From the IMG/VR virus record IMGVR_UViG_3300014205_000176: 64,000 nt of DNA; one strand, given 5' to 3'. The translations under genes and the position numbers were made by a program. This document shows positions 6,721-55,787 of this stretch, in pieces; position 1 is the stretch's first letter; each line of letters opens with the position of its first letter. The DNA is from a virus. Lineage: Duplodnaviria > Heunggongvirae > Uroviricota > Caudoviricetes. The notes under the pieces were generated by a model. It was not told the origin of the DNA. It did not search any database and saw only the letters and a program-made list of their open reading frames with translations.

Positions 6721-7387
6721 TTACCACTCCCCTCTAGACCACTTCGAGAGTTTCCATACCTTGCCAGTTCGATGGTCAGTTACCCGATCATCCTGTGCTC
6801 GATATGTCCGAACCTTGTCTCCGCGCATTCCACTGCCAACCTGATCGCGCCGAGCCTTGTCCTGAGTGTTCTTGCTCATCTCTAAATTCTCAGAGTATAT
6901 CTTCGCCGTCAATATTCGAACAGCCATCGAACGACTCTGGAATTGAGAACGCATATCCACACGGACAGTTACCCCAGTTGGAATGTGAGTTGCCGTTATG
7001 CATGACTCGGTCTTGTTCCGATGTTGCCCTCCAGGCCCCGAACCGCGAGATGGCTTGATCTCTATGTCCGATTCTGGAACACTAAAACTTCTTGGGACAT
7101 CAGGATTCATCACCGCAACTGTTATCGTGGAGGTTTGCACTCGTCCACGCTTCTCTGTTGGTGGTATTCGCTGATATCTGTGGCCTCCAGGTTCGTCTTT
7201 GAAAATAGTGCTGACCCTTTTGCCAGTCACTATCATCGACAGATACCCAGGCCGAGAATCTATTACCTCCGCTTCAAAGACACTCCCGCCCAGCTACTCG
7301 CAGGTATGTTCCAGCGTGGTCCTCTACCAACAGCTTCGCATCATCTCCACCTTCTGCCGCCCGTATCTCTATCACTATGCTTTCCAT
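6721..7387 (-). CDS. truncated class-I peptide chain release factor (PxT + GGQ), expressed by +1 programmed frameshift, 221 aa
   Basis: ATG at 7387 with AAGGAG RBS; frame 0 gives MESIVIEIRAAEGGDDAKLL...ECL then TGA; the +1 frame continues EAEVIDSRPG...GGHRYQRIPPTEKRGRVQTST...GSGPGGQHRNKTES...RGDKVRTY. Confidence 0.9.
7273..7290 (-). promoter_or_regulatory. prfB-type +1 ribosomal frameshift signal
   Basis: - strand GGCGGGAG-TGT-CTT-TGA-A: internal SD, 3-nt spacer, CUU Leu codon, UGA; same geometry as E. coli prfB AGGGGG-UAU-CUU-UGA-C. Confidence 0.85.
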
Positions 7388-7537
7388 TTCATTTCTCCTT
7401 CTTTGGTAATATAACCTAAAGACACTCATCCCTACATTCACGTCCTACTCTCTTACATTCCGCATGACAATCATCCCACGTTCGAGACGCAGCCCTGCAA
7501 ATCTTCACCGCAGTATCATATGAAAAAAGAACCAAAC

Positions 7538-39124: not shown

Positions 39125-42100
39125 ATGATCGTCAACAAGTACGCCAAGAAATGCCAGTGTTGTGGTAGGCCAGTTGGCGTTGGTAAGGGCTGGGCCTACA
39201 ACAATGGAAATGGATGGTTCACAACCTGTGCATCATCCGCTTGTCATCGTCATCTCGGCCTTGAAGTTCCTCAGAGTGTCACGGCGAACGCCAATGTTCG
39301 CAAGCTCACTGAGGATGGCAAGGTCTACATGGCATATGATCGCGATGCGGTACCGCTGCTTCGTGCAATGCCGGGTGCGAGCTTCAATCCAGAGAACCTT
39401 CCAAAGGATCAGGTCTACTGGCAAGTGAGTATAAAGCCAGCTGACCTTCCGCGAGTGGTTGAGATTGCTGATCAACTCAAGTTGGAGGTTCATGAATCGC
39501 TTCGTGCGTTGGTTGAAGCGGGTACTGCGGAGAGTCGCGAAGCAGTTGCTCGTGCGACTGCGATTAGCGTCAATGGAAAGACTCTGTTCGGCTTCCAGAC
39601 GGATGGTGTCAAAGCCCTAGCGTTGCACGACAGGTTCTTCCTAGCCGACGATATGGGTTTGGGCAAGGCGCAGCCTGTTTCAGAACCAGTTCTCACACCA
39701 AAAGGATGGGTTCCAATCGGGACTTTGAAAGTTGGTGATTTTGTAATTGGTTCCAATGGAAGACCAACTAGAGTTGATGGGGTGTTTCCCCAGGGTGTAA
39801 AGGATATCTTCGAGATCGTCCTTTCTGATGATGCTCGTACTCGCTGTTGTGAAGATCATCTTTGGGCTGTTCAAACTCCAAATGATCGTGTTCGCAATCC
39901 AGGCAGAATTCGAGTGCTTTCATTGAAGGATTTGAATGCATTGGGTTTGAAAGATAGGAATGAAAATCATAAATTCTTCATTCCAATGGTACGGCCGGTT
40001 GAGTTTGAAGAAACAGACCTTCCGATGCACCCCTACTTATTGGGTGCGTTGATTGCAAACGGCGGATTGTGTGCAACTACAATAACTCATGCTGGTGATG
40101 ATGAACAACGAGGTGCATTCAAGGAGTATCTTCCAGTTGGAATTTACCTATCACAGAGTGACGATTACACATACCGTCTTTCGTATCTAGGCCCTGAAAA
40201 TCAAGATACCAATCCAATTACCCAAGTACTTGATAACTTGTGCCTGAAAGGACTGCAAAGCCAAGATAGATTTGTTCCAGAAGAGTACATGCTGGCCTCA
40301 GTAGAGCAAAGGCTTAGTCTCCTACAAGGCCTATTGGATAACGATGGAACAATTTCTAAAGACGGAATGTGTATTGAATACAATACAACCTCCCCTGTTC
40401 TTGCAAGTCAGGTTTGTTCTTTGGTGCGAAGCCTCGGTGGTATCGCATTGATGTCAAGCCGGATTCCGCTCTTCACACATAACGGAGAAAAGAAAGCTGG
40501 GCTGCCAGATTTTAGAATTCGTATCAAACTTCCTAGTGGAATGGTGCCGTTCAGAATTCCGCGCAAGGTAGAGCGGTTCATTCCTCCTACAAAATACCCA
40601 TCGACACACGCCATCACAGATATCTTCCCAGCTGGTCAGGAGGATTGTGTTTGTATTCGTGTCGAAGCAAAGGATCATCTATACGTTACACGAGACTATA
40701 TTCTAACGCACAACACGGTCCAGGCAATCGTAGCGCTGCCTGATAACGAAAGGGTATTGGTGATTTGCCCGGCGTCGCTGAAGTACAATTGGCGCGACGA
40801 AATTCAGATGTGGCGTCCGAGTTACCGAGTTACAATCTGCAGCGGCAAAGAAGAGACGGTTGCAAAGACATTGGCCGAAGGTAAGAAGACCAAAGCGATA
40901 CCGTTCAAGATTCCCGAGCCTGGTGAGATTGTGATTTGCAACTACGACATCCTTCCGAACTACCTCGCACCGAAGAAAGACAGCGGCAAGGTATCGAAAA
41001 AGGGCAAGCCGATTCTGGTAGCCAATCTCACACCGGAGCAAGAGCAAGCGCTGAGCGAAACGAATGTGATTGGAGATGAATTTCACCTCGTCAAGAACTA
41101 CAAGACGGCGAGAGCCCAGAAGGTTGGACAGGTAACAAGAATCAGCAAGCGTGTATGGGCTCTATCGGGCACGCCATTGATGAATAACCCTCTGGACTTG
41201 TTTGGAGTTCTATCAGCTGGCAACATAAATGTGTTTGGTAGCTGGGACAACTTCCTGAGGTTGTTCAATGGGTACAAGAATCAATGGGGCGGATACGAAT
41301 TCGGGATGCCGCTACCTGAGGTACCTGAGCGAATGCAGCGGGTCATGCTGCGGCGGCTAAAGACCGAGGTGTTGAAAGACCTACCGCCCAAGGTGTACCA
41401 GGACATCGAGGTTGATGACGGAACGCTGACCAAGACACTTAATACATTTCTTGGTAAAGTAACCGGCAAGAAAATCGACGATGATTTCGACTACGAGGCT
41501 GAGCTTGACATCGAAGAGCTTCCAGACTTCAAGGAGTTCTCGGAGATTCGTGCAATGCTGGCCAGGTCACGCATCCCAGCGATGCTTGAGATGGTTGAAA
41601 GCTACGAAGATTCAGGAACGCCGCTGGTAGTGTTCAGCGCTCACAAGGAACCAATCGAAGCACTGCAGGATCGTGCTGGTTGGAGAATCATCACTGGGGA
41701 TACTGACCCAGAAACCAGACGCAACTTCGTCAAGGAATTCCAAGACGGATTGTTGAAGGGAATTGCCCTAACAATCAAGACTGGTGGCGTAGGGTTTACG
41801 TTGACTCGGGCAACGAACGCTCTGTTTGTTGACTTGGATTGGACGCCTTCATGGAACATTCAAGCTGAGGATCGTCTTGTTCGCATCGGAGCTACTGGCA
41901 GCCACGTTTTGATCATGCGAATGCGGTCAAATCATCCGCTAGATCGACACATCCAAAAGCTACTTAAACACAAGATTGCTCTTGCGTACTTGGCACTGGA
42001 AGCCAGTATCAAATTCAAGCCACCACCGCCTCGGCTACCAGGAGTTGCGGTGATTCAAGAGACTGATGACGAGATGATGGCTCGCATTCAGGTGGCTGGC

Positions 42101-42493
42101 GATGAGGTTGAGCGAGAGATAGCACTGGATAGGTTGCAAGGAGTGCTTGCTCGTGAATCGGCGAAGGTCAATAACGTCCCGGAACCTGAGTTGACTCCAG
42201 GTCGCAAAGAGATGCTGCGGGATGCGCTGGAATACATGATCAGCGTATGCGATGGCGCTGAGACACGAGACCAAATGGGGTTCAATAAGCCGGACGCCTT
42301 TATGGCTCGATGGGTTGGAATGTGCCTACGAGAAGAAGACGAGGTTTCATTTAGGGTTTTGGAAAGGATCCTGGTGAGGTATCGCCGGCAACTCAAGGGT
42401 AGGTTTGAAGAGATTTGGAAACCAGCAAACGACTTTTGTAAACGACCAAACACTATTGGTTCAACACATGTTTGGGTAGACGGAGGTAAGTAA
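39125..42493 (+). CDS. SNF2-family (SMARCAL1/HARP-like) helicase with intein
   Basis: LADDMGLGK|T, ICPASLKYNW, DEFH, LSGTPLMN, VFSAH, GGVGFTLT, QAEDRLVRIG; N-terminal Zn finger and HARP-like region. Confidence 0.92.
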   Translation: MIVNKYAKKCQCCGRPVGVGKGWAYNNGNGWFTTCASSACHRHLGLEVPQSVTANANVRKLTEDGKVYMAYDRDAVPLLRAMPGASFNPENLPKDQVYWQVSIKPADLPRVVEIADQLKLEVHESLRALVEAGTAESREAVARATAISVNGKTLFGFQTDGVKALALHDRFFLADDMGLGKAQPVSEPVLTPKGWVPIGTLKVGDFVIGSNGRPTRVDGVFPQGVKDIFEIVLSDDARTRCCEDHLWAVQTPNDRVRNPGRIRVLSLKDLNALGLKDRNENHKFFIPMVRPVEFEETDLPMHPYLLGALIANGGLCATTITHAGDDEQRGAFKEYLPVGIYLSQSDDYTYRLSYLGPENQDTNPITQVLDNLCLKGLQSQDRFVPEEYMLASVEQRLSLLQGLLDNDGTISKDGMCIEYNTTSPVLASQVCSLVRSLGGIALMSSRIPLFTHNGEKKAGLPDFRIRIKLPSGMVPFRIPRKVERFIPPTKYPSTHAITDIFPAGQEDCVCIRVEAKDHLYVTRDYILTHNTVQAIVALPDNERVLVICPASLKYNWRDEIQMWRPSYRVTICSGKEETVAKTLAEGKKTKAIPFKIPEPGEIVICNYDILPNYLAPKKDSGKVSKKGKPILVANLTPEQEQALSETNVIGDEFHLVKNYKTARAQKVGQVTRISKRVWALSGTPLMNNPLDLFGVLSAGNINVFGSWDNFLRLFNGYKNQWGGYEFGMPLPEVPERMQRVMLRRLKTEVLKDLPPKVYQDIEVDDGTLTKTLNTFLGKVTGKKIDDDFDYEAELDIEELPDFKEFSEIRAMLARSRIPAMLEMVESYEDSGTPLVVFSAHKEPIEALQDRAGWRIITGDTDPETRRNFVKEFQDGLLKGIALTIKTGGVGFTLTRATNALFVDLDWTPSWNIQAEDRLVRIGATGSHVLIMRMRSNHPLDRHIQKLLKHKIALAYLALEASIKFKPPPPRLPGVAVIQETDDEMMARIQVAGDEVEREIALDRLQGVLARESAKVNNVPEPELTPGRKEMLRDALEYMISVCDGAETRDQMGFNKPDAFMARWVGMCLREEDEVSFRVLERILVRYRRQLKGRFEEIWKPANDFCKRPNTIGSTHVWVDGGK
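39668..40714 (+). mobile_element. class-3 intein with LAGLIDADG endonuclease (349 aa)
   Basis: Starts AQPVSEPVLTPKGW (Ala1) and ends ILTHN|T; WCT signature (HLW, VCI, THN); LLGALIANG and LLQGLLDNDG blocks. Confidence 0.9.
42427..42467. repeat. 41-bp perfect inverted repeat, right copy
   Basis: AAACGACTTTTGTAAACGACCAAACACTATTGGTTCAACAC, inside the helicase 3' end. Confidence 0.95.
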
Positions 42494-42618
42494 TGTTCAC
42501 TCCCGGGATCAACAGCTCCTACGGAGAACCACTGTTGGTGCAGTAGAGCTCGCCAAATCTCAGCAATGAAAGTATTGCTATCGATTGTGAATGCGGTTGT
42601 AAGCAGAGAGGAAACACA

Positions 42619-42837
42619 ATGTACATCAAAGACACCAAGAACCACCCCGTCGGCACCACCTACACCGTGCTCGTTCCTGCGCACGCGGCCCGTCGCCGTG
42701 ACGTCTCGCTAGATGATGCCATATCTGCGTTGCAAACTATGGAGTCCGAGGGGCTCGATGCTGTCATGCACGCGACATTTCCTGATGGTACCAGGGTACT
42801 CGGGTGCGTCGGTGACTGGATGCACTGGGTCCCGTGA
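42619..42837 (+). CDS. hypothetical protein (GC-rich, foreign-looking)
   Basis: GAGGA RBS, C/G-ending codons, its own terminator. Confidence 0.7.
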   Translation: MYIKDTKNHPVGTTYTVLVPAHAARRRDVSLDDAISALQTMESEGLDAVMHATFPDGTRVLGCVGDWMHWVP

Positions 42838-42880
42838 GAGACACCCTTCCAGTCACGCTCCTCCGACTCAGGTTGGTGAG

Positions 42881-42911
42881 AAGGGCTGCGGAAACGCAGC
42901 CCTTTTCTTTT
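42881..42911 (+). terminator. intrinsic terminator
   Basis: AAGGGCTGCG-GAAA-CGCAGCCCTT followed by TTCTTTT. Confidence 0.85.
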
Positions 42912-43168
42912 GTCTTGACAGTTTGGAAAATGCAGCCAAGGCTGTTTCGATAGAGGAATGTATGAGAGGAATGTATGAGAGAGAAGCAAGAACTTACCGT
43001 AACGCCCGTACCAGTCGAAAGCACGCTAGTAATTTGGGAGGAGAATCCAGAAAGAATTCGGTTTTCCCTCATAGGGGCCCTGTTATTTGATGGGGTTTTG
43101 ATTACTCGGGTTTGTCAAACTGGATTTTTATTGTAACAATTTACCAACGCACTCAGAAAGATTCTCAC

Positions 43169-44110
43169 ATGGCATCAAGATCAGTCGGACGAGTAGTTCT
43201 CAGTTTCGGGATGGCTCAAATTGCCGTCAAACTCTACAACGCCACGGGCTCAGAAGCCGTGAGCTTCAACATGATCAGTCCCAAACGCAATCGGGTTGGT
43301 CAACGCCTGTTCGAAAAGTTGCCAGGGTCCACAGAGGACACTGTGATTTGGGGGGAGGAGATCAAGGATCGGAGCAAATTGCTGAAGGGTTACGAATACG
43401 CCAAGGATCAGTTCGTCTACTTCACCGACGAAGAAGTGGCGAACATGCAAGCCGGCAAGAAAGACTCTCTGAATATTGCCGAATTCGTTCCTGTCAGCGA
43501 AATCGATCCGCTGCACATCGAGAAGACGTACTATACAGCGCCTGACAAGGGCATGGACAAGGGGTACCGATTCTTGTACGAACTTCTCAAAGCTCACAAT
43601 CGCGCCGCCATCGGGATTTACGTAGCACGTGGCAAGGAACATCTCGTTGCAATCCAGGCGTTCCAACACGGCCTCGTCCTGTACCAGTTGTTCTACAACA
43701 CGGAGGTTCGGGCATTCGACAATAAGTGTGCGAACATTCCGGTCTCGCCAGTTGAGTTGGCAATGGGCAAGGTGCTGATGGATACGCTGTTCAAGTCGAC
43801 CTTCGATTCTTCCAAGTACTCAGACAAGTTCATCGATAAAGTGAATAAGGCAGTGGCAGTCAAGCTAGCGGATCCGATGGCTACAATCACAGAGGTTGCG
43901 GTTCCGGTATCAACTGGTGGCATGGCTGACACGCTTCGAGCATCGCTGATTTCGATGGGTGTGCCGGAAGACCAAATCGATGCGATGATTGCCAAGGCGA
44001 TGGGCGATATACCAGCAGTACCGAGTGGACCAGCTGCAGCTGAACCTCTGGTGCTCACTGCACCTGCAGCAAAGTCTGCACGTAAGCAGCGGGCCAAGCA
44101 AGCTAGCTAG
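43169..44110 (+). CDS. ku: prokaryotic Ku end-joining protein
   Basis: SFGMAQIAVKLYNAT, LLKGYEY..DQFVYFTDEE, FVPVSEIDP...KTYY..P, LYQLFY..EVR, FDSSKYSDKF. Confidence 0.9.
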   Translation: MASRSVGRVVLSFGMAQIAVKLYNATGSEAVSFNMISPKRNRVGQRLFEKLPGSTEDTVIWGEEIKDRSKLLKGYEYAKDQFVYFTDEEVANMQAGKKDSLNIAEFVPVSEIDPLHIEKTYYTAPDKGMDKGYRFLYELLKAHNRAAIGIYVARGKEHLVAIQAFQHGLVLYQLFYNTEVRAFDNKCANIPVSPVELAMGKVLMDTLFKSTFDSSKYSDKFIDKVNKAVAVKLADPMATITEVAVPVSTGGMADTLRASLISMGVPEDQIDAMIAKAMGDIPAVPSGPAAAEPLVLTAPAAKSARKQRAKQAS

Positions 44111-44117
44111 GGTTGTG

Positions 44118-44145
44118 GTTGAGGGCTCGAAAACGAGCCCTCAAC
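44118..44145 (+). terminator. 12-bp hairpin after ku
   Basis: GTTGAGGGCTCG-AAAA-CGAGCCCTCAAC; no U-tract. Confidence 0.55.
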
Positions 44146-44233
44146 GACCTGAGTAAGTCCTGCCGATGTAAAATAACTGACCTTCAATCGCGCGTTGTCA
44201 GGATTTATTCTGGTCGTTACTGTTGAGATAACT

Positions 44234-44494
44234 ATGTCAGACCCAATATACACTTTGAAAGTGGGAGATATCCTCGTTGCAGTAGATGGAAGCAAGTATG
44301 GTGTTATAGTTTTGGACGTTACTAAATATACCAAAACCGAGGATGTTATTGTTCGTCCGTTTGACTCTCATTATGTTGAGAAAACAACGGATTTGATGGA
44401 TGTTTTTAGGCTCATCTACAGATTCCGATTGGTAGGGGACAAAATTCCAGAATGGGTACCACATGAAGCGAAGATTAACCATCGAGCTACTTGA
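44234..44494 (+). CDS. hypothetical protein
   Basis: ATG after GAGA. Confidence 0.65.
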   Translation: MSDPIYTLKVGDILVAVDGSKYGVIVLDVTKYTKTEDVIVRPFDSHYVEKTTDLMDVFRLIYRFRLVGDKIPEWVPHEAKINHRAT

Positions 44495-44682
44495 TAGAAT
44501 GATAGTAATCGCCCAAAAGGATCCTGATAAGAATGAAGCCGAATGGAACTTTTTTCATGGGGTTCTCTGGGGCGAAGAAAAAAATGATCCAGGCATCATA
44601 TTTGACTTGCTCAAGATGGCAAGGCGAATATTGGTATGGCGAAGCCAAGCTACAGCTACTTTAACAAAGCTACAAAAGGCAA

Positions 44683-45204
44683 GTGTCTGTGAAAATAAAT
44701 GATATTATCAATGGGGCCTCTGTGAAAGTAAATGATGTTATCGATGGGGAATACAAAACCTACATCAAAATAAGAACTGGTACGGTTTATCAAAGCATTG
44801 GGCCTGGTTCAAACATCATTAGCTATTTGGAAAAAGATGCTAGGATATGGGTAGGTTCGGTATCTGCTGAAGTTACCCGGGCCGCTCAGACTCTGGTGGG
44901 TATTTGGGAAACATCCACAGAGTTACGAAAGTTACGAGAGGCTCTTCCGGTAGTAGAAGATAGCGATAGTGATAACTGTCCTTCCTGTGGGCATTCATCA
45001 GTCACGCTAAGTGCCGTTAAATATACGTTTGAATATGGCCAGGATGATCGCATCGTGATGCTAACGGCAGTCGTTCCTGTATTCACGTGTGGTCGCAAAG
45101 ATTGTAAGTTGAGTTGGTTGAATGAGTGTGGCCAAGCCTTGATAGAATATGCCATTACTCAGTATTTGGAATCTCAAGAATCCGAAGTTACCAGAGTCAC
45201 CTAA
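44683..45204 (+). CDS. hypothetical protein with C-terminal Zn ribbon
   Basis: CPSCG...VPVFTC...C. Confidence 0.65.
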   Translation: MSVKINDIINGASVKVNDVIDGEYKTYIKIRTGTVYQSIGPGSNIISYLEKDARIWVGSVSAEVTRAAQTLVGIWETSTELRKLREALPVVEDSDSDNCPSCGHSSVTLSAVKYTFEYGQDDRIVMLTAVVPVFTCGRKDCKLSWLNECGQALIEYAITQYLESQESEVTRVT

Positions 45205-45345
45205 ACTGATAGTTCCAACTGGTAGAACAATAATTGTTGCAGATGAGCAAAACAAAAAGTTCAAGGTCATCAAAGGTCCAGCGATCATAGATGACTGCGG
45301 TCTGGAGATCATAGATGACTGTTTCTGCCATCCGCCGAGCGCACA

Positions 45346-45771
45346 ATGAAAATACTAATACAAGTCAATACAATTGATGGAGAACTCGAAACAGACATTC
45401 AATATGCCGTCGTTGAAGTGAATCCCGAGATGCAGCAATACCTAACTCAGCGGCTGGCGTTGTTCAACGCTTCCAAGCAATTTGCAACTGATCTATCAGA
45501 CATGCGGTTCTGGGGTTGTGCTTTCATCACATTCCACAGCAACATCGACCTCGATACGTTGCTAGGTGAAGATGAGCAGCACGTGTTCGATGAGCAAGGC
45601 TACTGGGCAGTGGTTGATGACTTCGCGAACGATGAGGAAGCATCTGAATGGGAGTTCGAACAAGTGGTGCTCGATGGTGATGGCTGGTACGTCACGGCGA
45701 ATGAAAAGGATACTGGGGTCGAGATTAAGACTCGGGAGATACCATATGACCTGTCCCAATTGTCAGCATAG
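45346..45771 (+). CDS. acidic hypothetical protein
   Basis: 141 aa. Confidence 0.7.
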   Translation: MKILIQVNTIDGELETDIQYAVVEVNPEMQQYLTQRLALFNASKQFATDLSDMRFWGCAFITFHSNIDLDTLLGEDEQHVFDEQGYWAVVDDFANDEEASEWEFEQVVLDGDGWYVTANEKDTGVEIKTREIPYDLSQLSA

Positions 45772-46435
45772 CAACATTGAAGGTGCACAGTTTTGTGCGG
45801 TTTGCGGAACAACACTTAAGGAAACTACAATGACCGAAGAGATTAAGGACAACCTGGAAGAAGTTACCAATGAGCTGGCGGAGGCATTGGCGGCTATTCA
45901 AATCGAAGGGTCCAGGCATAAAAGGGAAGCGCAGAGCTACGTTATCCTGCAGAAGTTTGGAACCGATTGCAACATCGAAGCTCGCTACGATGTGCGGTCA
46001 ATCTCTGAAGTAATTACCGATAACTACGGTAACGAGTTCGTTCCGATGGACTTACATGTGATGGTAACCTATCCATCACATGGTGGAGATGAGGTAGAGT
46101 TGGTTTATGATCGCACTCGGTTCTTAAAAAAGTGTTGCATAGAGGCCTTGAAACTTAGAAACGAATTCACACCGAAACCGGTCTTCTGCCTACTACGTTC
46201 GGCAGCGCAAAAGCGACAGCGCGAACATGAGAAGAGTGCCGAGGTGGTTCGCTTGACCATCGTCATCAACTGCAAGGGTATGCGGATTGGTGCTTCGAAA
46301 AGGTTTTGCGACAGGCACTTCTCTGACCAATTGGTACCCGGCATTTACGATATCAGCATTGACAAGAGGCGCTACACCGCAGACGTCAGCGATAGCAAGG
46401 TTGTTACGGTAGTTCGAAGGCCATTGGAGTCCTGA
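45746..46435 (+). CDS. Zn-ribbon-containing hypothetical protein
   Basis: MTCPNCQHSNIEGAQFCAVCG at the N-terminus. Confidence 0.7.
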   Translation: MTCPNCQHSNIEGAQFCAVCGTTLKETTMTEEIKDNLEEVTNELAEALAAIQIEGSRHKREAQSYVILQKFGTDCNIEARYDVRSISEVITDNYGNEFVPMDLHVMVTYPSHGGDEVELVYDRTRFLKKCCIEALKLRNEFTPKPVFCLLRSAAQKRQREHEKSAEVVRLTIVINCKGMRIGASKRFCDRHFSDQLVPGIYDISIDKRRYTADVSDSKVVTVVRRPLES

Positions 46436-46465
46436 GATGGTAGCCGGCGTTGATGAGATACCAAA

Positions 46466-46813
46466 ATGACCAAGCTGGCAAGGATCCCCACGCCAGAAGA
46501 TTTGTGGGGTGACTGCGAAGTAACTGGTTGGGACGAGCGACACACGTCCTTATGGAAACTTTGGCTACGAGGGATTGCTGCCATCATCGTATTTGCTGAG
46601 CAAAGTGTGATTGACCGGGTTGAGGAGGTAGTTAGATTAACCACGGCAAAAGCGAAGGCTGGAGATCTGACGGCTGAGGAGGCGGTATGGCTGGTGAGCC
46701 CGCTAGTCCTGATATCCTCGAAGGAATGGGACACAATAAATGCTATAGCAAGGGAGCAAGGCCAGATGGTAGGGAATTTTTTCCTATCAGATGAGTTCAC
46801 TAGCAATAATTAG
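46466..46813 (+). CDS. hypothetical protein
   Basis: 115 aa. Confidence 0.65.
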   Translation: MTKLARIPTPEDLWGDCEVTGWDERHTSLWKLWLRGIAAIIVFAEQSVIDRVEEVVRLTTAKAKAGDLTAEEAVWLVSPLVLISSKEWDTINAIAREQGQMVGNFFLSDEFTSNN

Positions 46814-46848
46814 TCATGTATTCATCAAGGTAACACTTAGAGGAATAT

Positions 46849-47463
46849 ATGACCAGAGAGACAGCATCAATTCAAAACTTCCTTATTTCAGCTGAACAAT
46901 CCATTCCTAATTTGGATGGACACAAAATCCGAGTGGCTGAACGTCGAATTCTCTGGTCGAAATTAGCACAGCAAGCGCCTGCTTCGGCAGGCGCTCAACC
47001 TCCTCGAACGTATGAGGAGTGGGAAAAACAACAGAAGTACAAGACACCAATTAGTAATCAGCAGCTGATGGATCAACAGGCATGGCAGCAAGCAAACCCA
47101 GAAGATGAATTGGGTAAGTTGCTGCGTCCACAGGGACCTCGGCCACCACAGCAGGGAGTTGCTCATGCGCCTACGCAGCAAGTAAGACGCCCAGCTCCAA
47201 AGCCAAAGCCGGTAGCACCGGCCGCTAATCCGGTAGTCACACCAGTACCGAAATTTGACCTACGGCAGACAATGGATAGTCCAACTGGAATTCTGCCACC
47301 GCAAACGTACACACCAGGTCCCGGGGATGTAAACTACGAAGACGATGAAAAGTCTTTGGGGTATACTCCAGGGCCTAACGATCCGAACTATACCGGAGCA
47401 AGCAAGAGCATTTCTGGCCTGCTCAAGATTGCGGACTACCTCAGCAAGAAGCGGACATCCTAA
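46849..47463 (+). CDS. Gln/Pro-rich hypothetical protein
   Basis: GAGGA RBS; low-complexity middle region. Confidence 0.75.
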   Translation: MTRETASIQNFLISAEQSIPNLDGHKIRVAERRILWSKLAQQAPASAGAQPPRTYEEWEKQQKYKTPISNQQLMDQQAWQQANPEDELGKLLRPQGPRPPQQGVAHAPTQQVRRPAPKPKPVAPAANPVVTPVPKFDLRQTMDSPTGILPPQTYTPGPGDVNYEDDEKSLGYTPGPNDPNYTGASKSISGLLKIADYLSKKRTS

Positions 47464-47476
47464 GAAAGAATAGAAA

Positions 47477-48340
47477 ATGTTATTGTGGACAAATGATATA
47501 CACCTGAACTTCTTGAAGCAAGATGACGGGGCGTTACGATTTGCTCAATATCTAATGGAAGAAAATCCGACGGCGGATGGATTGATAATCGCTGGAGATA
47601 TTTCTGATGGCAATCTTCTTGAGACTCATTTAACTCAGTTAGCTCAAGGGTTTCCTAAGCCAATATACCTAACCACTGGCAATCATGATTACTACCACAG
47701 TTCATTTGCCAAGATAGATGAATTAGTTACTGGTCTTACCAAGAAGTTTGATAATTTACATTGGCTCAATCAAGGCAATCATACTTACGAAGGCATCAGC
47801 ATCGTAGGTGTAGGTGGGTGGTATGATTCTCGTCAAGGAAATTGTAGGACTCGGGTTGAGCTTTCTGACTTCACGGCGATTGAAGACCTGTGGGGTGGAC
47901 TCAACTGTCGAGATCTGATGATTGACTTGGTACGAAAGCGAGCGGCCAAGGAAGCTGAGCGGCTCGACGAATTACTTTTTCAAGAAATGGTCGACGTTGA
48001 TGAAGATGTCGTTTTGGTAGCAACACATATCTCGCCGTATCCTGAGTCTTGCTGGCATAAAGGCAAACAGAGTGATCGCGAATGGTTGCCATGGTTCTGC
48101 AGTCACGTTACCGGAGAGGTCCTTGACAAATATGCCGAGAGCTTTCCTGGGAAGAAATTCGTAGTATTAGTAGGGCATGGTCATTCTCCTGGTATTTATG
48201 AAAGGCGTGATAATTTGATTGTGTATACTGGCGGCGCTATATATGGCTATCCAGATGTGGCAGGCACGATTGATGTCGTGTGTGGAAAAATTGTTTGTTA
48301 TAATTCTTTTGGTAAGAAAGTTGAAAGGACATTTCCATAA
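47477..48340 (+). CDS. calcineurin-like metallophosphoesterase
   Basis: NDIH, AGDISD, GNHDYY, THISP, GHGH. Confidence 0.9.
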   Translation: MLLWTNDIHLNFLKQDDGALRFAQYLMEENPTADGLIIAGDISDGNLLETHLTQLAQGFPKPIYLTTGNHDYYHSSFAKIDELVTGLTKKFDNLHWLNQGNHTYEGISIVGVGGWYDSRQGNCRTRVELSDFTAIEDLWGGLNCRDLMIDLVRKRAAKEAERLDELLFQEMVDVDEDVVLVATHISPYPESCWHKGKQSDREWLPWFCSHVTGEVLDKYAESFPGKKFVVLVGHGHSPGIYERRDNLIVYTGGAIYGYPDVAGTIDVVCGKIVCYNSFGKKVERTFP

Positions 48341-49219
48341 TGGGGAAAATATCGCAGTAATGACGGGGCGTTACGATTTGCTCAATGTCTAATGGAAGAA
48401 AATCCGACCGTGGACCTGAGCGGGGTTCCGGTAAGCAGTCATATCGAAAGTCTACAACAGAAAGAGGTCCCTAGTGGCAACTACAATCACTCTCAGCGCG
48501 GAATCAAAATTTGGATACAGAGGGCAATACATCGCTCGATTGCGAGGACGGGCGGCAAAGTTCGAGTTCGACCGTGATTTCATCGGAAACAAGTATGGTA
48601 AGCGGCTCGATTGCACTACCGTAGAGACCGACGAAACGGGTCTCTATGAAACTTGCGACGTCGGAAAGCACGGCAAAGACAAGTCGTACTACCTCGTTTT
48701 GCCGTGGAATGATGGCATCGTGCGTTTGGTGTCGGACCATGAGGACGCCTTGGCAATTGCTAAGCGCATGAGCGCTGGCGAGTGCATCGCAGACATCGTT
48801 GCGGTCGAACGTGGCGATGTCGTCATGGTGACGACCTACCCGCGGATTTGCGGCGCTTGCGGCGCAACGTGCGACGGGTGGACTTGCGCGTGTGGCTCGA
48901 CAGACGTTCATCAGCAGACGGTCCAGACCGCGAAACTCAAGGAAGACGGAAGCGAAGTCCACTCACTCGCCTACGTCATTCGCGGCAAATGCGAAGCGAA
49001 AAAGGCGATTGCAGCGGCTACGATCGATGGTGCAGCCCTGGCTATCGCCAATGTGCTTGTGGGGTTGCCGGCAGCGCAGCAGAAACAGGCCTTGGCGGCC
49101 GCAAAAGCTCGACTATTCCCAAAGGCCGAACCCCAACATGAAATTGTGAGCGAAGAATGAAACTTCGAGCCAATGGCACCGCGCGGTAAGTGAGGCAATC
49201 ATGGGGAAAATATCGCAGT
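48340..49219 (+). mobile_element. inserted gene cassette flanked by 19-bp direct repeats
   Basis: ATGGGGAAAATATCGCAGT at 48340-48358 and 49201-49219; encloses a 49-bp copy of 47523-47571 and a GC-rich ORF. Confidence 0.7.
48474..49160 (+). CDS. hypothetical protein with Zn ribbon (GC-rich)
   Basis: AAAGAGG RBS, GTG start; CGACG...CACG. Confidence 0.75.
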   Translation: MATTITLSAESKFGYRGQYIARLRGRAAKFEFDRDFIGNKYGKRLDCTTVETDETGLYETCDVGKHGKDKSYYLVLPWNDGIVRLVSDHEDALAIAKRMSAGECIADIVAVERGDVVMVTTYPRICGACGATCDGWTCACGSTDVHQQTVQTAKLKEDGSEVHSLAYVIRGKCEAKKAIAAATIDGAALAIANVLVGLPAAQQKQALAAAKARLFPKAEPQHEIVSEE

Positions 49220-49407
49220 TCTTACAGGCAGTAAAGGCAGGTCTGGTTCAAGAAATTCCACCTGAGTATCAAGCTTGTGAATCTTGTCGGCGGCCGAATT
49301 GCGATTCTGCAACGGCGGCAATGTGTGAACAACGGATTCTTGGAGAGAGGCAAGAGTCTCAGCGAAGGGTAGAATTGGTAGACGGAAAGGATAAGATTAT
49401 TGACTGA
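49201..49407 (+). CDS. small Cys-containing hypothetical protein
   Basis: ACESCRRPNC. Confidence 0.7.
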   Translation: MGKISQFLQAVKAGLVQEIPPEYQACESCRRPNCDSATAAMCEQRILGERQESQRRVELVDGKDKIID

Positions 49408-50164
49408 TTTTCTATTAGCAAACCGATGGGATAGAATATTGGATCCTACAGGGTGGTGGGTCTCTATTAAACTTGATGGTCACCGTGCTCATTGGGATGG
49501 CAAGCATTTTCGTAGTCGTGGCACAGATGGAAACTTCGGGCGTGTTATAGAGGCACCGGAATGGTTCATCAAAGGACTTCCTTATGAAGTGCTGGATGGT
49601 GAGTTGTATGCTGGGCGCGGTGAGATTGGAAAGGTAACTTCGGCAGTCAGTGGTAAGCGCGAACTTGATTGGAAAGCACTTACCTATTCAGTTTACGACG
49701 CCCCCGATTACCTGCAAGGATTTGAGCTACGTATTGCATATGCAAAGATGATCTTGAACCGAGCGGTTAACGCAAAGGTGATCGATTTTTGGGTATGCGA
49801 AAGTAAAGAGCAACTACTCGTACAGCTTGACAAGATTGTAGCTGAGGGTGGCGAAGGTTTGATGCTTCGCAAGCCTAACTCACGCTATGAGAAGAAGCGA
49901 AGCAACACACTGCTCAAGGTGAAGAAGCGATTCGACGCCGAGGCGGTAGTGACAGGACATATTGAGGGAACGCGCCCTGGACTTTGTGGTGCTCTGCAAG
50001 TGATGAACAAAGCAGGGCTGCAATTCAAGGTAGCGTCTGGAATGACCGAGGCAATGGCACACAATCCGCCGCCGATTGGAACGGTCATAACGTATGAATG
50101 GGAACTGCTGACTAAGGAAGGAATTCCGCGGCCGGCTATATTTGTAAGAATTCGGCAGGGTTAA
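49400..50164 (+). CDS. minimal ATP-dependent DNA ligase
   Basis: Motif I SIKLDGHRA, LDGELY, EGLMLRK, KRSNTLLKVK, C-terminal OB fold. Confidence 0.92.
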   Translation: MTDFLLANRWDRILDPTGWWVSIKLDGHRAHWDGKHFRSRGTDGNFGRVIEAPEWFIKGLPYEVLDGELYAGRGEIGKVTSAVSGKRELDWKALTYSVYDAPDYLQGFELRIAYAKMILNRAVNAKVIDFWVCESKEQLLVQLDKIVAEGGEGLMLRKPNSRYEKKRSNTLLKVKKRFDAEAVVTGHIEGTRPGLCGALQVMNKAGLQFKVASGMTEAMAHNPPPIGTVITYEWELLTKEGIPRPAIFVRIRQG

Positions 50165-50376
50165 TATGGAATTCGACGCACTCGTATTCAATCTCTTTGG
50201 TAATAAGACGATAGCTAAAATGATGGAACGCGATGGACTGCCTCACAATCGTTTGGTCAAGATGACAGCAGAGCGATTGTTTGAGTTGTCCAGGTTATAC
50301 GATGTGACGGTACGTATTCATACGACGACGCACATCTTCCTGGCACTACAAGCCACCTACCTACCGGGAGACTACA

Positions 50377-50895
50377 GTGAATAAGGGCGAAACTAAACTA
50401 CTTGATACATTCAAGCCGTTCATCAATGCCGCACAGGCTTTCGTTGATGAACATATTGTAGGCAATACTACAATGACGGTTCCAGATATTACTGCTGGGT
50501 TCATGGCCATCAACCAGTCACTTATTGGTGGAACAATCACACCGGTCGAGTTCGACAAGGGCTTTCGCCTAGCGATTCGTGAGAAGCTCATCACCGGTCT
50601 AGAGGTGGCTCAAGGCAAGGGCAAAGGTTACAAGAGAGAGGGAGTTGTCCTTCCGCGATCGGTAACCATCAGTCCGAAAGATTGGGATACGATACGTTAC
50701 CGGCTTCATCTCACATCTTCCGATGACTTGCCTGAAGTACTGGCCGCACTAGAGGCGGTTGCTCCAATAATCGAAGCTGCAATCGTTGGAGTTTCGGCAT
50801 TGAAGAGAGCTGGGATGCCACGATGTCTCTGCCCTGGTCCTGCCGGTCGTCATCATGAGACATGGTGTCCTTCCTACAAGTGTGTTGTTGAATAA
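50377..50895 (+). CDS. hypothetical protein
   Basis: 172 aa. Confidence 0.7.
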   Translation: MNKGETKLLDTFKPFINAAQAFVDEHIVGNTTMTVPDITAGFMAINQSLIGGTITPVEFDKGFRLAIREKLITGLEVAQGKGKGYKREGVVLPRSVTISPKDWDTIRYRLHLTSSDDLPEVLAALEAVAPIIEAAIVGVSALKRAGMPRCLCPGPAGRHHETWCPSYKCVVE

Positions 50896-50957
50896 TCGGC
50901 TAGCCGGCACAATCCAGCCATCCGATTTGTATCGCTAATCATCAGTCTTAATTAGCA

Positions 50958-50985
50958 TTGACAAATCTTCTGTTCCGCAGATAAT
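50958..50985 (+). promoter_or_regulatory. possible sigma70-type promoter
   Basis: TTGACA-16 bp-GATAAT upstream of the FtsK-like gene. Confidence 0.5.
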
Positions 50986-51001
50986 GATTGGAATAAGTGC
51001 C

Positions 51002-52060
51002 ATGTCTATCCAAGCCGAAATGAATAATGTATTGAATGAACTTGGCATTGATGGAGAATGCATCCGTGCAGAAGCCCACCGCCATCTAGCCTACTACGAC
51101 ATCAAGCTGGCTTGCCGACCATCAGCGCTCGGCAAGCTACAGCGCAGTGCCATGGCCATTGCATTAGCGATCAAGTCACAGACTGTCCCTCTAATGCGGC
51201 TCGTGCCCGAGAAAGGAATTGTGCGGTTGCAGGTAGCACTCAGCAAAGCTCAGCCGATTCCGTTCACTAATCTTCTCAAAGGCGAACAGATCCCGGACCA
51301 TATGGTGTTCCCGATGCTTCTGGGAGAGAGTGATGAGGGCAGTAAGTTGTGGATGGATATGAATAACAATCCACATCTACTGATTGCTGGCAGCACTGGG
51401 TCCGGCAAGTCAACTCTGCTTCATGCGCTGATTGCGAATGGTTTGATTCTTCATGCCAAGAACGTTCGCAACGTACATATCTACCTCAATGACCCAAAGA
51501 AAACTGAGTTTCAAGAATACACCAGTGACCTTAGCGACACCATCAAAGAGGTTGCCTCTACCTATAGCGATACGTTGAGTCAATTGAATTATCTTGCACA
51601 AGTAATGGAAGACCGGTACGCTTTGATGAGTGAGATTAAGATACGCAGCATTGAGGAGAACCCTCGGCGTCTACCTCTCATATTGTGTATTGTTGATGAG
51701 GTTGCCGACCTGATGCTACAGGACAGGGGCCGCAAGCTCGAAGCCTTGATTGTCCGGCTTGCGCAGAAGGGTCGCGCTGCTGGCATCTTCATGGTGTTAG
51801 CAACGCAGCGCCCGAGCGTCAAGGTTATCACTGGTGAAATCAAAGCCAATTTTCCAGGACGAATTGCTTGCAAGACCGCATCTAAAGTTGACAGCATGGT
51901 GATTCTAGACCGTGTTGGCGCAGAAACCTTGCTGGGCCGAGGCGATGCGGTTCTCAAGAATCAACAATTTGAAAGCTTGCGTTTCCAAGTAGCGTATACC
52001 ACCCCAACCATTAACAAACTAATTTTCAAAAGTTTCCTAGAGAGAAGGACACACTCATGA
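51002..52060 (+). CDS. FtsK/SpoIIIE-domain ATPase (no membrane domain)
   Basis: PHLLIAGSTGSGKS, DPKKTEF, IVDEVADLM, GRAAGIFMVLATQRPS, GAETLLGRGD. Confidence 0.9.
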   Translation: MSIQAEMNNVLNELGIDGECIRAEAHRHLAYYDIKLACRPSALGKLQRSAMAIALAIKSQTVPLMRLVPEKGIVRLQVALSKAQPIPFTNLLKGEQIPDHMVFPMLLGESDEGSKLWMDMNNNPHLLIAGSTGSGKSTLLHALIANGLILHAKNVRNVHIYLNDPKKTEFQEYTSDLSDTIKEVASTYSDTLSQLNYLAQVMEDRYALMSEIKIRSIEENPRRLPLILCIVDEVADLMLQDRGRKLEALIVRLAQKGRAAGIFMVLATQRPSVKVITGEIKANFPGRIACKTASKVDSMVILDRVGAETLLGRGDAVLKNQQFESLRFQVAYTTPTINKLIFKSFLERRTHS

Positions 52061-52674
52061 CCACAGTAAAGATCCATTACCTCGGAGAAATTGAAACCGC
52101 AACGGGTAAAGCGCACGATGGTTGGACTGGTGGATTTAAGTACAATGGCCACCGCGTAGATGTTCGGCGCGTTGAGCCAACTACCTTGGAGCTTGACATC
52201 TGTCCATTCACTAAACTGAGCGTGGGCTGGGGAGATCGTGGTGCATCAGCTGCCGATCTGGCTATCTGGGGTGAGACCGCCAATGGTAGTGTAGAATATT
52301 CGGCGAAGCATGGCCTGTGCATCAACGGTTACTTCGTGAAAGATTCTGTGTTGGAATTGCGAGCCATGGAGATTCACTCGGCAATAGTTGCGGCGGCTCA
52401 ATTGGCGGAAGAGACACGGCCGAATGTATCTGCCGTCTGCGCACAGTACCGCTCCATTTTGAAGTCAATTGCTGAAGAGCACGAGCGGCATTACGCGCAG
52501 TGGAAATCTAACCTTCCCAAGATTGCTCGTAAGTTCCGACGCAAGAAGGTGCTGGTTGGAGAGCAAACCGTTCCTGGGAAATGCTGCGTAAGGAGTGTTC
52601 GTGGGAACCTACTCGGTTACGTTGATATTTGGAACGGCAAGTGGCTTGAAACTGTGGAAAGAATTACAGCCTAA
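52057..52674 (+). CDS. hypothetical protein
   Basis: 205 aa, ATGA overlap. Confidence 0.7.
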   Translation: MTTVKIHYLGEIETATGKAHDGWTGGFKYNGHRVDVRRVEPTTLELDICPFTKLSVGWGDRGASAADLAIWGETANGSVEYSAKHGLCINGYFVKDSVLELRAMEIHSAIVAAAQLAEETRPNVSAVCAQYRSILKSIAEEHERHYAQWKSNLPKIARKFRRKKVLVGEQTVPGKCCVRSVRGNLLGYVDIWNGKWLETVERITA

Positions 52675-52890
52675 CGGAATCACCATGAACAAAACACTAG
52701 CACTCATCAAAGCTTCGCAGCTGAGGGAAGAGGCAGAGCTTGCTCTCTCGGCTATTGATTGGAAAGCCCTGCCACTGCTGTTCAAACAGCTAGGTAGTCA
52801 GCTAGCGGCTGTGCGTGGGCTTTGCTCCGAGATTGTTGGCCGGACCGGAGCGTGGCTGGCTCTCACTGATACGGTTGATAGGGTGATGTC

Positions 52891-53157
52891 ATGATTCACT
52901 GGAGCATACGCAACGTACAGATTCGTTCTCGAAAATTGAATGAACAGCTTGTGCAGAAGTTGCAAGAAGCTCACGTCGTATTCGTTCAGATGACGGAAAT
53001 CCAAGAGAAAGTACGGCGTGGAGAGTTGGCCGCTGAGAAAGCGAAAGCATCCTTGGAGCAGGCGGAGGCGTTTCATGCGGCGGCGATGAATGCCTGCTCA
53101 CAACTACTGGTTGACAGAGTGGCTCTATTCGACCCGTTCATAAAGGTCGAGCCATGA
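52891..53157 (+). CDS. hypothetical protein
   Basis: Packed ORF. Confidence 0.6.
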   Translation: MIHWSIRNVQIRSRKLNEQLVQKLQEAHVVFVQMTEIQEKVRRGELAAEKAKASLEQAEAFHAAAMNACSQLLVDRVALFDPFIKVEP

Positions 53158-53423
53158 TCACTTCGGTCAAAGAGCTACACACCACAATTGAACGCGCCGA
53201 CTACCAATTCTACAATTACTTGATTTGCAAGGTACGAACTGGTGGATCAATTCGGTACGATCTCTATCGAGTTTGGTTGAGCAATCGCAGCGACAGAACT
53301 CTGCTCAAACGCCTTGGATGTGCGCTGCCCCTGGGTCACTGCCGAAGATTGATTCGTGAGCAAGAACCTAATGGAACTGTGGTTGTTTCTCACCGAGCCT
53401 CGCCACAAAGGATTTCAAGATGA
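53154..53423 (+). CDS. hypothetical protein
   Basis: ATGA overlaps on both sides. Confidence 0.65.
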   Translation: MITSVKELHTTIERADYQFYNYLICKVRTGGSIRYDLYRVWLSNRSDRTLLKRLGCALPLGHCRRLIREQEPNGTVVVSHRASPQRISR

Positions 53424-53950
53424 CACGCTATCTTACTATCGAACAAGATATCACCACAATGAAGGTTGACTGCATCGTCAATGCGGCCAACAACCGAATG
53501 CTAGGTGGCGGCGGAGTTGATGGATCAATTCATCGTGCTGCCGGTACAAACCTGGTAGAGGCCTGCTCAATCATCCCCGAAGTATCCAAGGGAGTTCGGT
53601 GCCCTACTGGCCATGTGCGAATCACTCCAGCGTTCAAGCTGCCATGCAAGTTCGTGATCCATACCGCAGGCCCCATATGGAAAGATGGAACGCACAACGA
53701 AGCTGAGTTTCTTGCTTCGTGTTATCGGCGGTCATTGCAGTTGGCGGCGCTGCATGGAAAGTCGGTAGCGATACCGGCAATCAGTACGGGTATCTTCCAG
53801 TTCCCGATTGAGCAAGCTTGTCACATTGCGGTGCGTGAAGTGGAAGCGTTCATGCAATGCGACTCGGACCTTGAGGATATCTACTTGGTGACATTCATGT
53901 CCGATGAAGTCTCGGAGTGCTTTGCGGAGATGGGAGTACAACATGGCTGA
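53420..53950 (+). CDS. MacroD-type macrodomain (ADP-ribosyl hydrolase / O-acetyl-ADPr deacetylase)
   Basis: IVNAANNRMLGGGGVDGSIHRAAG, VIHTAGP, AIPAISTGIFQFP. Confidence 0.92.
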   Translation: MTRYLTIEQDITTMKVDCIVNAANNRMLGGGGVDGSIHRAAGTNLVEACSIIPEVSKGVRCPTGHVRITPAFKLPCKFVIHTAGPIWKDGTHNEAEFLASCYRRSLQLAALHGKSVAIPAISTGIFQFPIEQACHIAVREVEAFMQCDSDLEDIYLVTFMSDEVSECFAEMGVQHG

Positions 53951-54242
53951 CGACAAAGATAAGGGCTTCATTGTAATGGGTCCTGAGTTGCCAAATGGCG
54001 GGCGCGCTGCCATTCATGTTGACAAGGAAGGGGTTCACCACGGCGAGATGTTCCGCGAAGGCGAGGCTCCCGAATGTGCAGAGGGAGAACTCACCAGGAT
54101 CAGGACCGAACAAATTGCCGGGCCAATCTATCAAGTCACCGAAGAAGAGCCGATTGGAAAGCCTTTGATGGTAAACTCTTTGGATTATCGAAATAATTGG
54201 AATAACATCTTTGGTAAGAAACAAGACGTTGGAGAAGCATAA
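53943..54242 (+). CDS. hypothetical protein
   Basis: GGAG RBS before ATG at 53943. Confidence 0.7.
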   Translation: MADDKDKGFIVMGPELPNGGRAAIHVDKEGVHHGEMFREGEAPECAEGELTRIRTEQIAGPIYQVTEEEPIGKPLMVNSLDYRNNWNNIFGKKQDVGEA

Positions 54243-54736
54243 TGTTAGAAATACAACTTCGAAAAATCGAGAACGGTCGCGAATACCACCTGACTGGTGC
54301 TCACATCGAGTCGCTCCCGCAAATGTTTGGTATACAGCTCGCCAACACAAAATACGCTTTGGTACACGCAGAGCCTGAGCTGGCGGTGCTCTACGAGTTT
54401 CGCGGGCTGATGTTGCGCGGACACGGAGAGGCCTGGGGTACGTCGCTCACACTTTATGGACCAGTTGATCCGCGAATCAACTCGCAGATCGATCCCGGCG
54501 GTAGCCGGCCAAACATGCCGGCGACGATCGTGTGGCACGACGAGATCTGGGATCGCGATGCGATAAACCGCCTCGGCACGAAAGGCGCGATATGTAGTGT
54601 GCCAAATGATGAACGAATCGAGGAAGCGCGTAAACAGCTATTTGCGCGGGCCGAACAATATTCGAGGACTGGTGGTTGGCCGCACTGGTTCGACAGGACC
54701 GAGCTTGAGTTAGCGAATAACGATAACGATGAATAG
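54242..54736 (+). CDS. hypothetical protein (GC-rich)
   Basis: TAATG overlap; C/G-ending codons. Confidence 0.7.
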   Translation: MLEIQLRKIENGREYHLTGAHIESLPQMFGIQLANTKYALVHAEPELAVLYEFRGLMLRGHGEAWGTSLTLYGPVDPRINSQIDPGGSRPNMPATIVWHDEIWDRDAINRLGTKGAICSVPNDERIEEARKQLFARAEQYSRTGGWPHWFDRTELELANNDNDE

Positions 54737-55132
54737 TTCCCAGGAAGAAAAACAATGCCGAAGTTCGACGGCTGCTGCGTGAAGCTAATAGTTCTAGAGC
54801 ATTGTCTTCACGGAATTGGGCAGAGCAAAATTTGAGATTGTCGCTGAGGCACTTGATCATCTGGTCTTGAAGAAACGCAAGAAGAACATTTGGAGCGCGC
54901 AGAACCTACTTGGGTAGTGAACTTTGTTATTGTATGGAGAGGCTTCTTGTGATAAGGTATTCTGGATTAGCGAAATGGTCTTTGGCTCAGTGACCGACAA
55001 CGGACCTGGGTTGTTGTGATCCTCGGATGTCTGGCGCATCTCGGGCTCATTCATTATGTCCTGAGGGGAATGGTTCATATGAAGCATATCACTTACATGC
55101 CGTGTAGTTGGGTCTCAATGGAGAAGTAATTA

Positions 55133-55393
55133 GTGACGCAGCGCAAACCCAACGACAGCTCGAAGCATCCAAGGATCGTAGGCCCCGATGATGAAGGACG
55201 GCTCTGCGTCAAGTATTCACGGAAGTTTTGGACGCTGATGGGTGCTTGGTGCAATTTCGAACTCAGTGCAGATCTCATCAGTCTGCGTCACTACCGACAC
55301 CTTTACACCGAAGGTAATCCCTGGAATCCAGTACATACCAAGGACTTCTGGGCTTGGTACCAAGAGAAGAACAATGGCAAAAGTAAAAGCTGA
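55133..55393 (+). CDS. hypothetical protein
   Basis: 86 aa. Confidence 0.55.
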   Translation: MTQRKPNDSSKHPRIVGPDDEGRLCVKYSRKFWTLMGAWCNFELSADLISLRHYRHLYTEGNPWNPVHTKDFWAWYQEKNNGKSKS

Positions 55394-55733: not shown

Positions 55734-55787
55734 AAAACTATCATTCCAAACTCTATCAGAATATAGCTGTGTTCAGAAAGAAAACAA

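Follow-up and report, generated by a model that had tools for sequence, protein, structure and literature searches.

Autoregulatory recoding has its textbook example in bacterial prfB, whose +1 frameshift at SD-N3-CUU-UGA-C was reportedly described by Craigen and Caskey in 1986 and by Baranov et al. in 2002. A survey from 2025 that covered more than 12,000 bacterial genomes recorded neither a programmed frameshift in prfA nor a UAG form of the cassette (PMC12421855), and a 2016 review of recoding gives bacterial release-factor genes with an early in-frame stop, after which the same frame continues, as unknown and cites a giant amoeba virus as the sole viral case (PMC5009743). In the phage family described here all of these occur: the prfB-type cassette is found in a gene of the RF1 type, it also exists with UAG, and other members have an in-frame UGA instead. 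Papers on huge and recoded phages mention RF1 and RF2 genes and do not mention recoding inside them; we found no published description of an RF1-type gated phage family in a search that most subscription journals lay outside, so that its absence is not proven. Our analysis of one such gene in a 64-kb stretch of phage DNA (the window, meaning the whole stretch that was analyzed), and of its relatives, leads us to a model that we consider probable though well short of assured: the gene encodes a 221-aa RF1-type factor, expressed through a programmed prfB-type +1 frameshift whose gate reports RF2 activity and does not serve autoregulation.

The locus occupies positions 6721-7400 of the window, and all of its features lie on the minus strand. 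A Shine-Dalgarno (SD) sequence, AAGGAG, read from the sequence at 7395-7400, stands 7 nt 5' of the ATG (7387-7385) and recurs at the same position in close relatives; with this as the release-factor gene's own ribosome-binding site, the host evidently uses SD pairing. The first frame (ORF1, frame 0, 7277-7387) runs for 37 codons (MESIVIEIRAAEGGDDAKLLVEDHAGTYLRVAGRECL) through the CTT at 7279-7277, which together with the following TGA (7276-7274) forms the shift site CTT TGA (7274-7279), CUU being the putative P-site leucine codon and TGA the 0-frame gate. An SD-like stimulator, GGGAG (7283-7287), lies 3 nt before the shift codon, separated from it by the spacer TGT (7282-7280). The second frame (ORF2, frame +1, 6724-7275) opens with GAA (7275-7273) and extends over 184 codons that hold the rest of domain 2 with the tripeptide PPT (residues 75-77, 7164-7156), domain 3 with GGQ (residues 119-121, 7032-7024), and domain 4, up to the TAA stop of the full-length product (6721-6723). 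When CTT-T is taken as one step, a 221-aa product with the junction ...RECL-EAEV... results, and no further interruption is met. The standard ORF list splits the gene into a 55-aa ORF ending at the gate TGA and a 171-aa +1-frame tail (6721-7236). An earlier note on this DNA had proposed an AAGGAG-ATG start at 7387 opening a 37-codon frame, an ORF track restricted to the last 171 aa, and prfB geometry at codon 37 (TGT-CTT-TGA-A) with the +1 frame completing 221 aa, and our minus-strand reading agrees with it on each of these points. The site also has features of its own. The weak context typical of prfB, with C after UGA, is absent from the window, where position 7273 is an A and all four close relatives have C, a substitution that may make shifting at the window site less or more efficient than at theirs; and the T run at the shift site is only three long, for which reason transcriptional slippage was set aside.

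Does the interruption reflect a programmed event, or a 1-nt assembly error or recent frameshift mutation that has left a pseudogene? Gene callers do split the gene, and the pattern by itself is not improbable in 64 kb, the bare motif GGAGNNNCTTTGA occurring once in the window against 0.27 copies expected by chance. Since the motif count is itself weak, the case rests on the placement of the frame junction and on conservation. A blastn search of the locus against the phage collection gave no match, and the comparison was made with four independent assemblies from three samples, whose proteins are 77-95% identical to the window factor and all of which retain GGGCGGGAG-(T/G)GT-CTT-TGA. Compared with these relatives, 0-5 of the 37 ORF1 residues differ. 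Against L087, the most distant of the four, 22 of the 28 differences in the first 37 codons fall at third positions of frame 0, and 115 of the 175 differences after the site fall at third positions of frame +1. A third-position bias that follows frame 0 before the site and frame +1 after it indicates that both parts are translated, each in its own frame, and, as judged from these substitutions, both frames are shown to be under purifying selection. The independent assemblies and the codon-position bias led us to reject sequencing error or pseudogene formation, and with the site present at the same codon in about 66 distinct distant relatives, an artefact or a decaying gene is now exceedingly improbable. 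That the +1 shift is programmed we hold with high confidence.

The joined product matches both Pfam PCRF (profile positions 101-194, of which ORF1 covers 101-131) and Pfam RF-1 without a gap across the junction, so that the resemblance of the upstream segment to PCRF, pointed out in the earlier note, holds for the protein as a whole. The NCBIfam RF1 model NF001859 is aligned over positions 105-324 of 347, again gapless across the junction, and neither Pfam nor NCBIfam profile searches returned a match to domain 1 in the joined product. The RF1 model gives 199.8 bits, a score that lies below its curated cut-off of 400, so the protein falls outside the full-length RF1 equivalog class; RF2 (TIGR00020) follows with 118.7 bits and PrfH (TIGR03072) with 75.8, against a PrfH cut-off of 166.65. 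Assignment to RF2 is opposed by the tripeptide, PPT and not SPF, as well as by the lower RF2 score. Matches to solved chains rank in the same order (RF1, 1e-41; RF2, 1e-24; PrfH, 1e-11). An AF2 model has a pLDDT of 87 overall and of 92-96 over residues 1-40, superimposes on domains 2-4 of ribosome-bound Thermus thermophilus RF1 (70S) with a TM score of 0.94 and an rmsd of 1.5 Å (Foldseek), and has the junction in the loop that connects the first helix to the following strand. In the alignment to solved RF1 chains, which is likewise unbroken, Leu37 occupies the conserved Trp column. As judged from these profiles and the model, the gene product is an RF1-type class I release factor of domains 2-4 that lacks domain 1. 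The PPT tripeptide in place of SPF, the intact GGQ and the missing domain 1 had all been noted before, and the sequence and profile matches confirm them. The earlier note had also entertained a ribosome-rescue role, for which we see no particular evidence: the scores of the PrfH and ArfB models are far lower than that of RF1, the ArfB (YaeJ) model covering residues 97-131 with 28 bits against a cut-off of 100 in a protein whose codon-recognition domain is present, and no rtcB-like neighbor occurs at the locus, the upstream ORFs of 41 and 148 aa having no Pfam match.

What would the first exon contribute to the factor? ORF1 encodes the first strand and the helix bearing the stop-codon-recognition tip EIRAAEGGDDA, and the equivalent helix tip of RF1 contacts the first stop-codon base. 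Because the tip is encoded in the first exon, the 171-aa tail alone is expected to be defective. RF3 stimulation requires domain 1, which codon recognition and hydrolysis can do without (PMC1586002). Within the recognition region, the window protein has Q72, the Thr of PxT and T85, the first and last being the equivalents of Gln181 and Thr194; these three are kept in most family members, and none has SPF. At the His193 position the window protein and many relatives have Gln, and about ten frameshifted members, in one subclade, have Asn instead of the Thr of PxT; these changes may alter recognition. Tripeptide variants in the family include PPN, SPT and SPL. One frameshifted gene on a 485-kb phage (L001:1501-2158, LR745208.1) has lost the PxT loop, with QRTSNGRIHSS in the place of QRIPPTEKRGRVQTS elsewhere, a loss that may set it apart from the other members in how it recognizes codons. 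In a CTT-TAG-gated IMG/VR member (L059/L060), SPL replaces PxT and no SD-like element lies upstream; its SPL is the only clear RF2-like tripeptide drift that we observed.

To what extent is the gate a property of the family? The first set consisted of 80 IMG/VR loci, the window and three GenBank huge-phage records (84 in total, many on contigs of 300-460 kb), and a second sample of 78 genes on metagenome contigs. A +1 shift exactly after codon 37 is needed in 35 of the 84 loci, at CTT TGA in 32 and at CTT TAG in 3. The remaining 49 are continuous in one frame. The earlier note had considered that homologs of this kind would speak against a programmed shift; continuous ones do exist, but most keep an in-frame UGA in the same stretch, 46 of the 49 having one or two in-frame stops at codons 37-52, nearly all TGA, and 28 of these 46 having TGA at the codon aligned with the conserved Trp of bacterial RF1 ('RGW'), the column of the window's Leu37. 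The metagenome sample contains 43 frameshifted genes (36 TGA, 7 TAG), 25 with in-frame stops and 10 that are uninterrupted. Ungated members make up about 10% of the family (3/84 in the IMG/VR set, 10/78 in the metagenome sample), and their existence indicates that gating is not obligatory for function. Conservation of CTTTGA in homologous phage genes, suggested in the earlier note as a check, is borne out by the pooled samples: among 66 distinct frameshift sites the shift codon is CTT in every case (66/66) and the stop is TGA in 58, TAG in 8 and TAA in none. Among in-frame gates UGA accounts for 53 of 54, and UAA is found in 0 of the 120 pooled frameshift and in-frame gates.

The sequence surrounding the gate is constrained on both sides. 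GGAGG or GGGAG lies exactly 3 nt 5' of CTT in 25 of the 32 distinct IMG/VR sites, and some G-rich SD-like motif is present upstream in 27 of the 32. At frameshift sites the base after the gate UGA is C in 38, G in 15, A in 5 and T in none. No T follows the UGA in any of 111 distinct gates, whereas among ordinary TGA stops T follows 14 of 43 in the window and 47 of 146 in a complete 364-kb relative, G001 (IMGVR_UViG_3300021963_000021). The gate avoids the strong-termination (+4U) context.

Rooting the tree with bacterial RF1 places the phage factors in a single clade with a support of 100, on which the gate states are clustered, 8 changes being needed to account for them; the window falls within a clade of 18 rows, all frameshifted, with a support of 97. 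Frameshift and in-frame UGA variants interchange within the family. Two IMG/VR sisters nested among frameshifted genes, L011 and L022, have regained a single frame and kept a stop, at codon 38 (TAT TAG and CTA TGA, respectively). Their retention of the stop after the frame had been restored suggests that it is the gate that is conserved, and not the slip as such. Among the best 80 loci from a scan of genome contigs, in which canonical RF1 predominated, the matches in Myxococcaceae, Corallococcus, Hyalangium and Archangium are full-length RF1 of the canonical type, and the short frameshifted form is found on only three MAG contigs, assigned to Hydrogenophilales, Sandaracinaceae and an unclassified proteobacterium. 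On the first of these (L089:3001-3650, NCIF01000008.1) the site reads CTT-TGA-C with GGGGG 3 nt upstream, and the cassette lies about ten codons further downstream than in the window, at a place where a sister clade has an in-frame TGA; by its position and sequence it looks like a second, independent origin of a prfB-like cassette in the same gene family. A metagenome member of the in-frame-UGA group (L219, Ga0187858_10016260) has an additional in-frame TAG at about codon 144 that is missing from near-identical relatives, and may be a decaying copy.

These findings correct the annotation of a widespread phage gene. The best protein-database matches are N-terminally truncated calls in 107 of 120 cases, and many of these start out of frame, with a stretch that has GGVFD or GGVFE at its end and corresponds to the cassette read in +1. 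The truncated calls miss the exon that encodes part of the stop-codon recognition site.

If TGA were a sense codon throughout these genomes, it would not constitute a gate. Such a reading could draw on the frequent location of the relatives' in-frame TGA in the conserved Trp column of RF1, and on the known existence of TGA-recoded phages with an RF1 (bioRxiv 10.1101/2021.08.26.457843). However, decoding the window's TGA as sense still leaves the wrong frame, so that the +1 shift would be required anyway, and TGA ends 43 of the 115 predicted genes of the window (37%). The same-frame junction test for TGA recoding showed no excess in the window, nor in the pooled flanks of either the frameshift or the in-frame-TGA group. 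The complete phage G001 has an in-frame TGA at codon 37 of its factor, and it shows neither genome-wide TGA recoding in the junction test nor a tRNA(UCA). We accordingly rejected genome-wide TGA reassignment on the junction tests in the window, the pooled flanks and G001, and consider an alternative code very improbable. Several other genes of the window are intact under code 11, among them those for an SNF2-type helicase (1122 aa), Ku, an FtsK-like ATPase, a metallophosphatase and a WGR-PARP-type protein (39125-57308), and an R2K ATP-grasp protein and a radical SAM protein are encoded at 61.5-64 kb. The SNF2 helicase, used as a query for counting in-frame stops in related genomes, had no match there.

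The in-frame TGA at codon 37 of G001, in a genome without genome-wide recoding, identifies the in-frame form as a gene-specific gate too. UGA is known as a leaky stop codon, and on this basis the in-frame UGA would most simply be passed by near-cognate insertion of Trp. The tRNA-Trp(CCA) of G001 is an ordinary one. We considered whether its anticodon stem might have 4 bp and so offer a route to reading UGA, and rejected this, as ARAGORN draws 6 pairs (two G-U counted). In G001 the UGA-gated factor gene is the immediate neighbor of a 28-gene tRNA array, and a tmRNA and a tRNA with the amber-reading anticodon CUA are encoded as well (features at 231.2-237.9 kb and 339.5 kb; loci L179, L184); nevertheless, no genome-wide signal of TAG or TGA recoding was detected in it. 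Five complete related genomes contain exactly one RF-domain gene each and no RF2.

In conjunction with the prfB precedent, from which kinetic competition at the gate follows, we propose the following mechanism. Ribosomes would initiate at ATG 7387, read 37 codons and pause, the P site holding peptidyl-tRNA-Leu on CUU and the A site holding UGA, during which time the internal GGGAG, 3 nt upstream, could pair with the anti-SD of 16S rRNA. Two outcomes would then be possible: termination at UGA by host RF2, yielding a 37-aa fragment, or slippage of the tRNA from CUU to UUU, placing the ribosome in the +1 frame and yielding the whole factor. Slow termination at UGA would thus give more phage factor, and the cassette would function as a cross-wired reporter of RF2. 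The product, lacking domain 1, would not need RF3 recycling for peptide release at UAA and UAG. The RF1-type determinants (Gln, PxT and Thr), taken together with the lack of a phage RF2, point to host RF2 as the reader of the gate, and we infer that, as a rule, members of the family encode an RF1-type factor whose UGA gate is read by host RF2. Sensing of RF2 activity by the gate, put forward in the earlier note as a cross-wired sensor in place of autoregulation, is plausible and fits both the RF1-type residues and the strong preference for UGA.

One may instead consider that the short factor reads UGA, or all three stops, despite its PxT, and that the site senses the factor's own level in true autoregulation. 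UGA dominates the gates (58/66 frameshift, 53/54 in-frame) as if it were the factor's own codon, the gate of prfB is always a codon that RF2 reads (PMC12421855), and the recognition region departs from canonical RF1 in His193->Gln, in the tripeptides PPN, SPT and SPL, and in the loop deletion of L001. Yet the window protein and most relatives retain the counterparts of Gln181, the PxT Thr and Thr194, no member has SPF, the RF1 models score far above the RF2 models, and the tripeptide variants in the family are distributed without regard to whether the gate codon is TGA or TAG. We therefore regard autoregulation through UGA as quite improbable and retain the RF2-reporting gate as our preferred reading for UGA-gated members. 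The 8 of 66 frameshift sites with a UAG gate are another matter: UAG is readable by an RF1-type factor itself, so that cross-wiring is not universal, and this minority would be autoregulatory if the factor reads UAG.

Could the gate act without sensing anything? It might be a fixed attenuator, holding a factor that is harmful in excess at a low, near-constant yield or setting a fixed ratio of the 37-aa to the full-length product. The prfB cassette shifts at about 30-50% (values quoted in bioRxiv 10.1101/2025.10.02.679949), excess release factors lower fitness (PMC12421855), and the interchange of frameshift and in-frame UGA variants looks as if any leaky stop suffices. A weak ribosome-binding site or promoter would, however, be a simpler means of attenuation, and the strong preference for the RF2-specific UGA over UAA (0/120), together with the avoidance of T after the stop, suggests selection for a passage that depends on competition with one particular factor. 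An attenuator of this type therefore seems unlikely to us, and a gate responsive to RF2 remains the reading that we favor.

What would a phage gain from such a switch? We suggest, with considerable reserve and as a possibility that we would not yet call probable, that large phages have built a sensor from two host systems, an RF1-type, RF3-independent factor that is made only when UGA is decoded slowly. If so, the gate may take the form either of a prfB-like +1 shift or of leaky readthrough at the codon of the conserved RF1 Trp, and the state of host RF2 would be linked to the infected cell's capacity for termination at UAA and UAG. Such a switch would be without precedent in two respects, as recoding by which one release factor governs how much of another is made, and as a programmed frameshift in a gene of the RF1 type. 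The cassette, relocated within the protein and connected to a codon that its product is not expected to recognize, offers a directly testable example of one termination factor regulating another, and suggests that host termination capacity is monitored or exploited by large phages.

Compared with bacterial prfB, the phage genes have the SD-like element 3 nt before CUU, the 0-frame UGA and a class I factor continued in the +1 frame in common, and in both cases the strong termination context is avoided and the cassette is widely conserved. The phage gene differs in being carried by a phage and in being of the RF1 and not the RF2 type. In prfB the site is found at about codon 26, within domain 1, whereas the phage site follows codon 37, in domain 2, at the conserved-Trp column of RF1; the base after UGA is C in prfB and A in the window. 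The UAG form, seen at 8 of 66 phage sites, is found in 0 of 8,164 prfB genes (PMC12421855). Unlike RF2, the phage product is not expected, from its recognition residues, to read the gate codon, so that the arrangement is probably not autoregulatory.

The factor itself is closest to bacterial RF1 (prfA), with which it shares the fold of domains 2-4 (TM 0.94), PxT, GGQ, the Gln and Thr residues and the best HMM match. It differs from RF1 in length (221 versus about 360 aa), in lacking domain 1, with no coupling to RF3 expected, in scoring below the equivalog cut-off, in the His193->Gln replacement and in the recoding gate, no programmed frameshift having been found in bacterial prfA (PMC12421855; PMC5009743). 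PrfH (RF-H, paired with RtcB2) is of similar size and likewise consists of domains 2-4 without domain 1, but the phage factor reaches 75.8 bits against the PrfH cut-off of 166.65 and a TM of only 0.69, keeps the RF1-type residues and has no adjacent rtcB-like gene.

Among viruses, the Mimivirus and Megavirus factor is reportedly likewise a virus-encoded termination factor whose synthesis needs recoding at stops (PMC3521657; cited in PMC5009743). It is reported to be an eRF1-like, eukaryote-type protein of amoeba viruses that depends on other signals and needs readthrough as well as a frameshift. The TGA-recoded Jade-clade phages resemble the present system in that a phage RF1 is tied to UGA decoding in the infected cell, but there TGA is reassigned genome-wide and the genes for the code change are written in standard code (bioRxiv 10.1101/2021.08.26.457843). 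In the window phage the genome is in standard code, and it is the RF1-type gene itself that carries the only recoded UGA.
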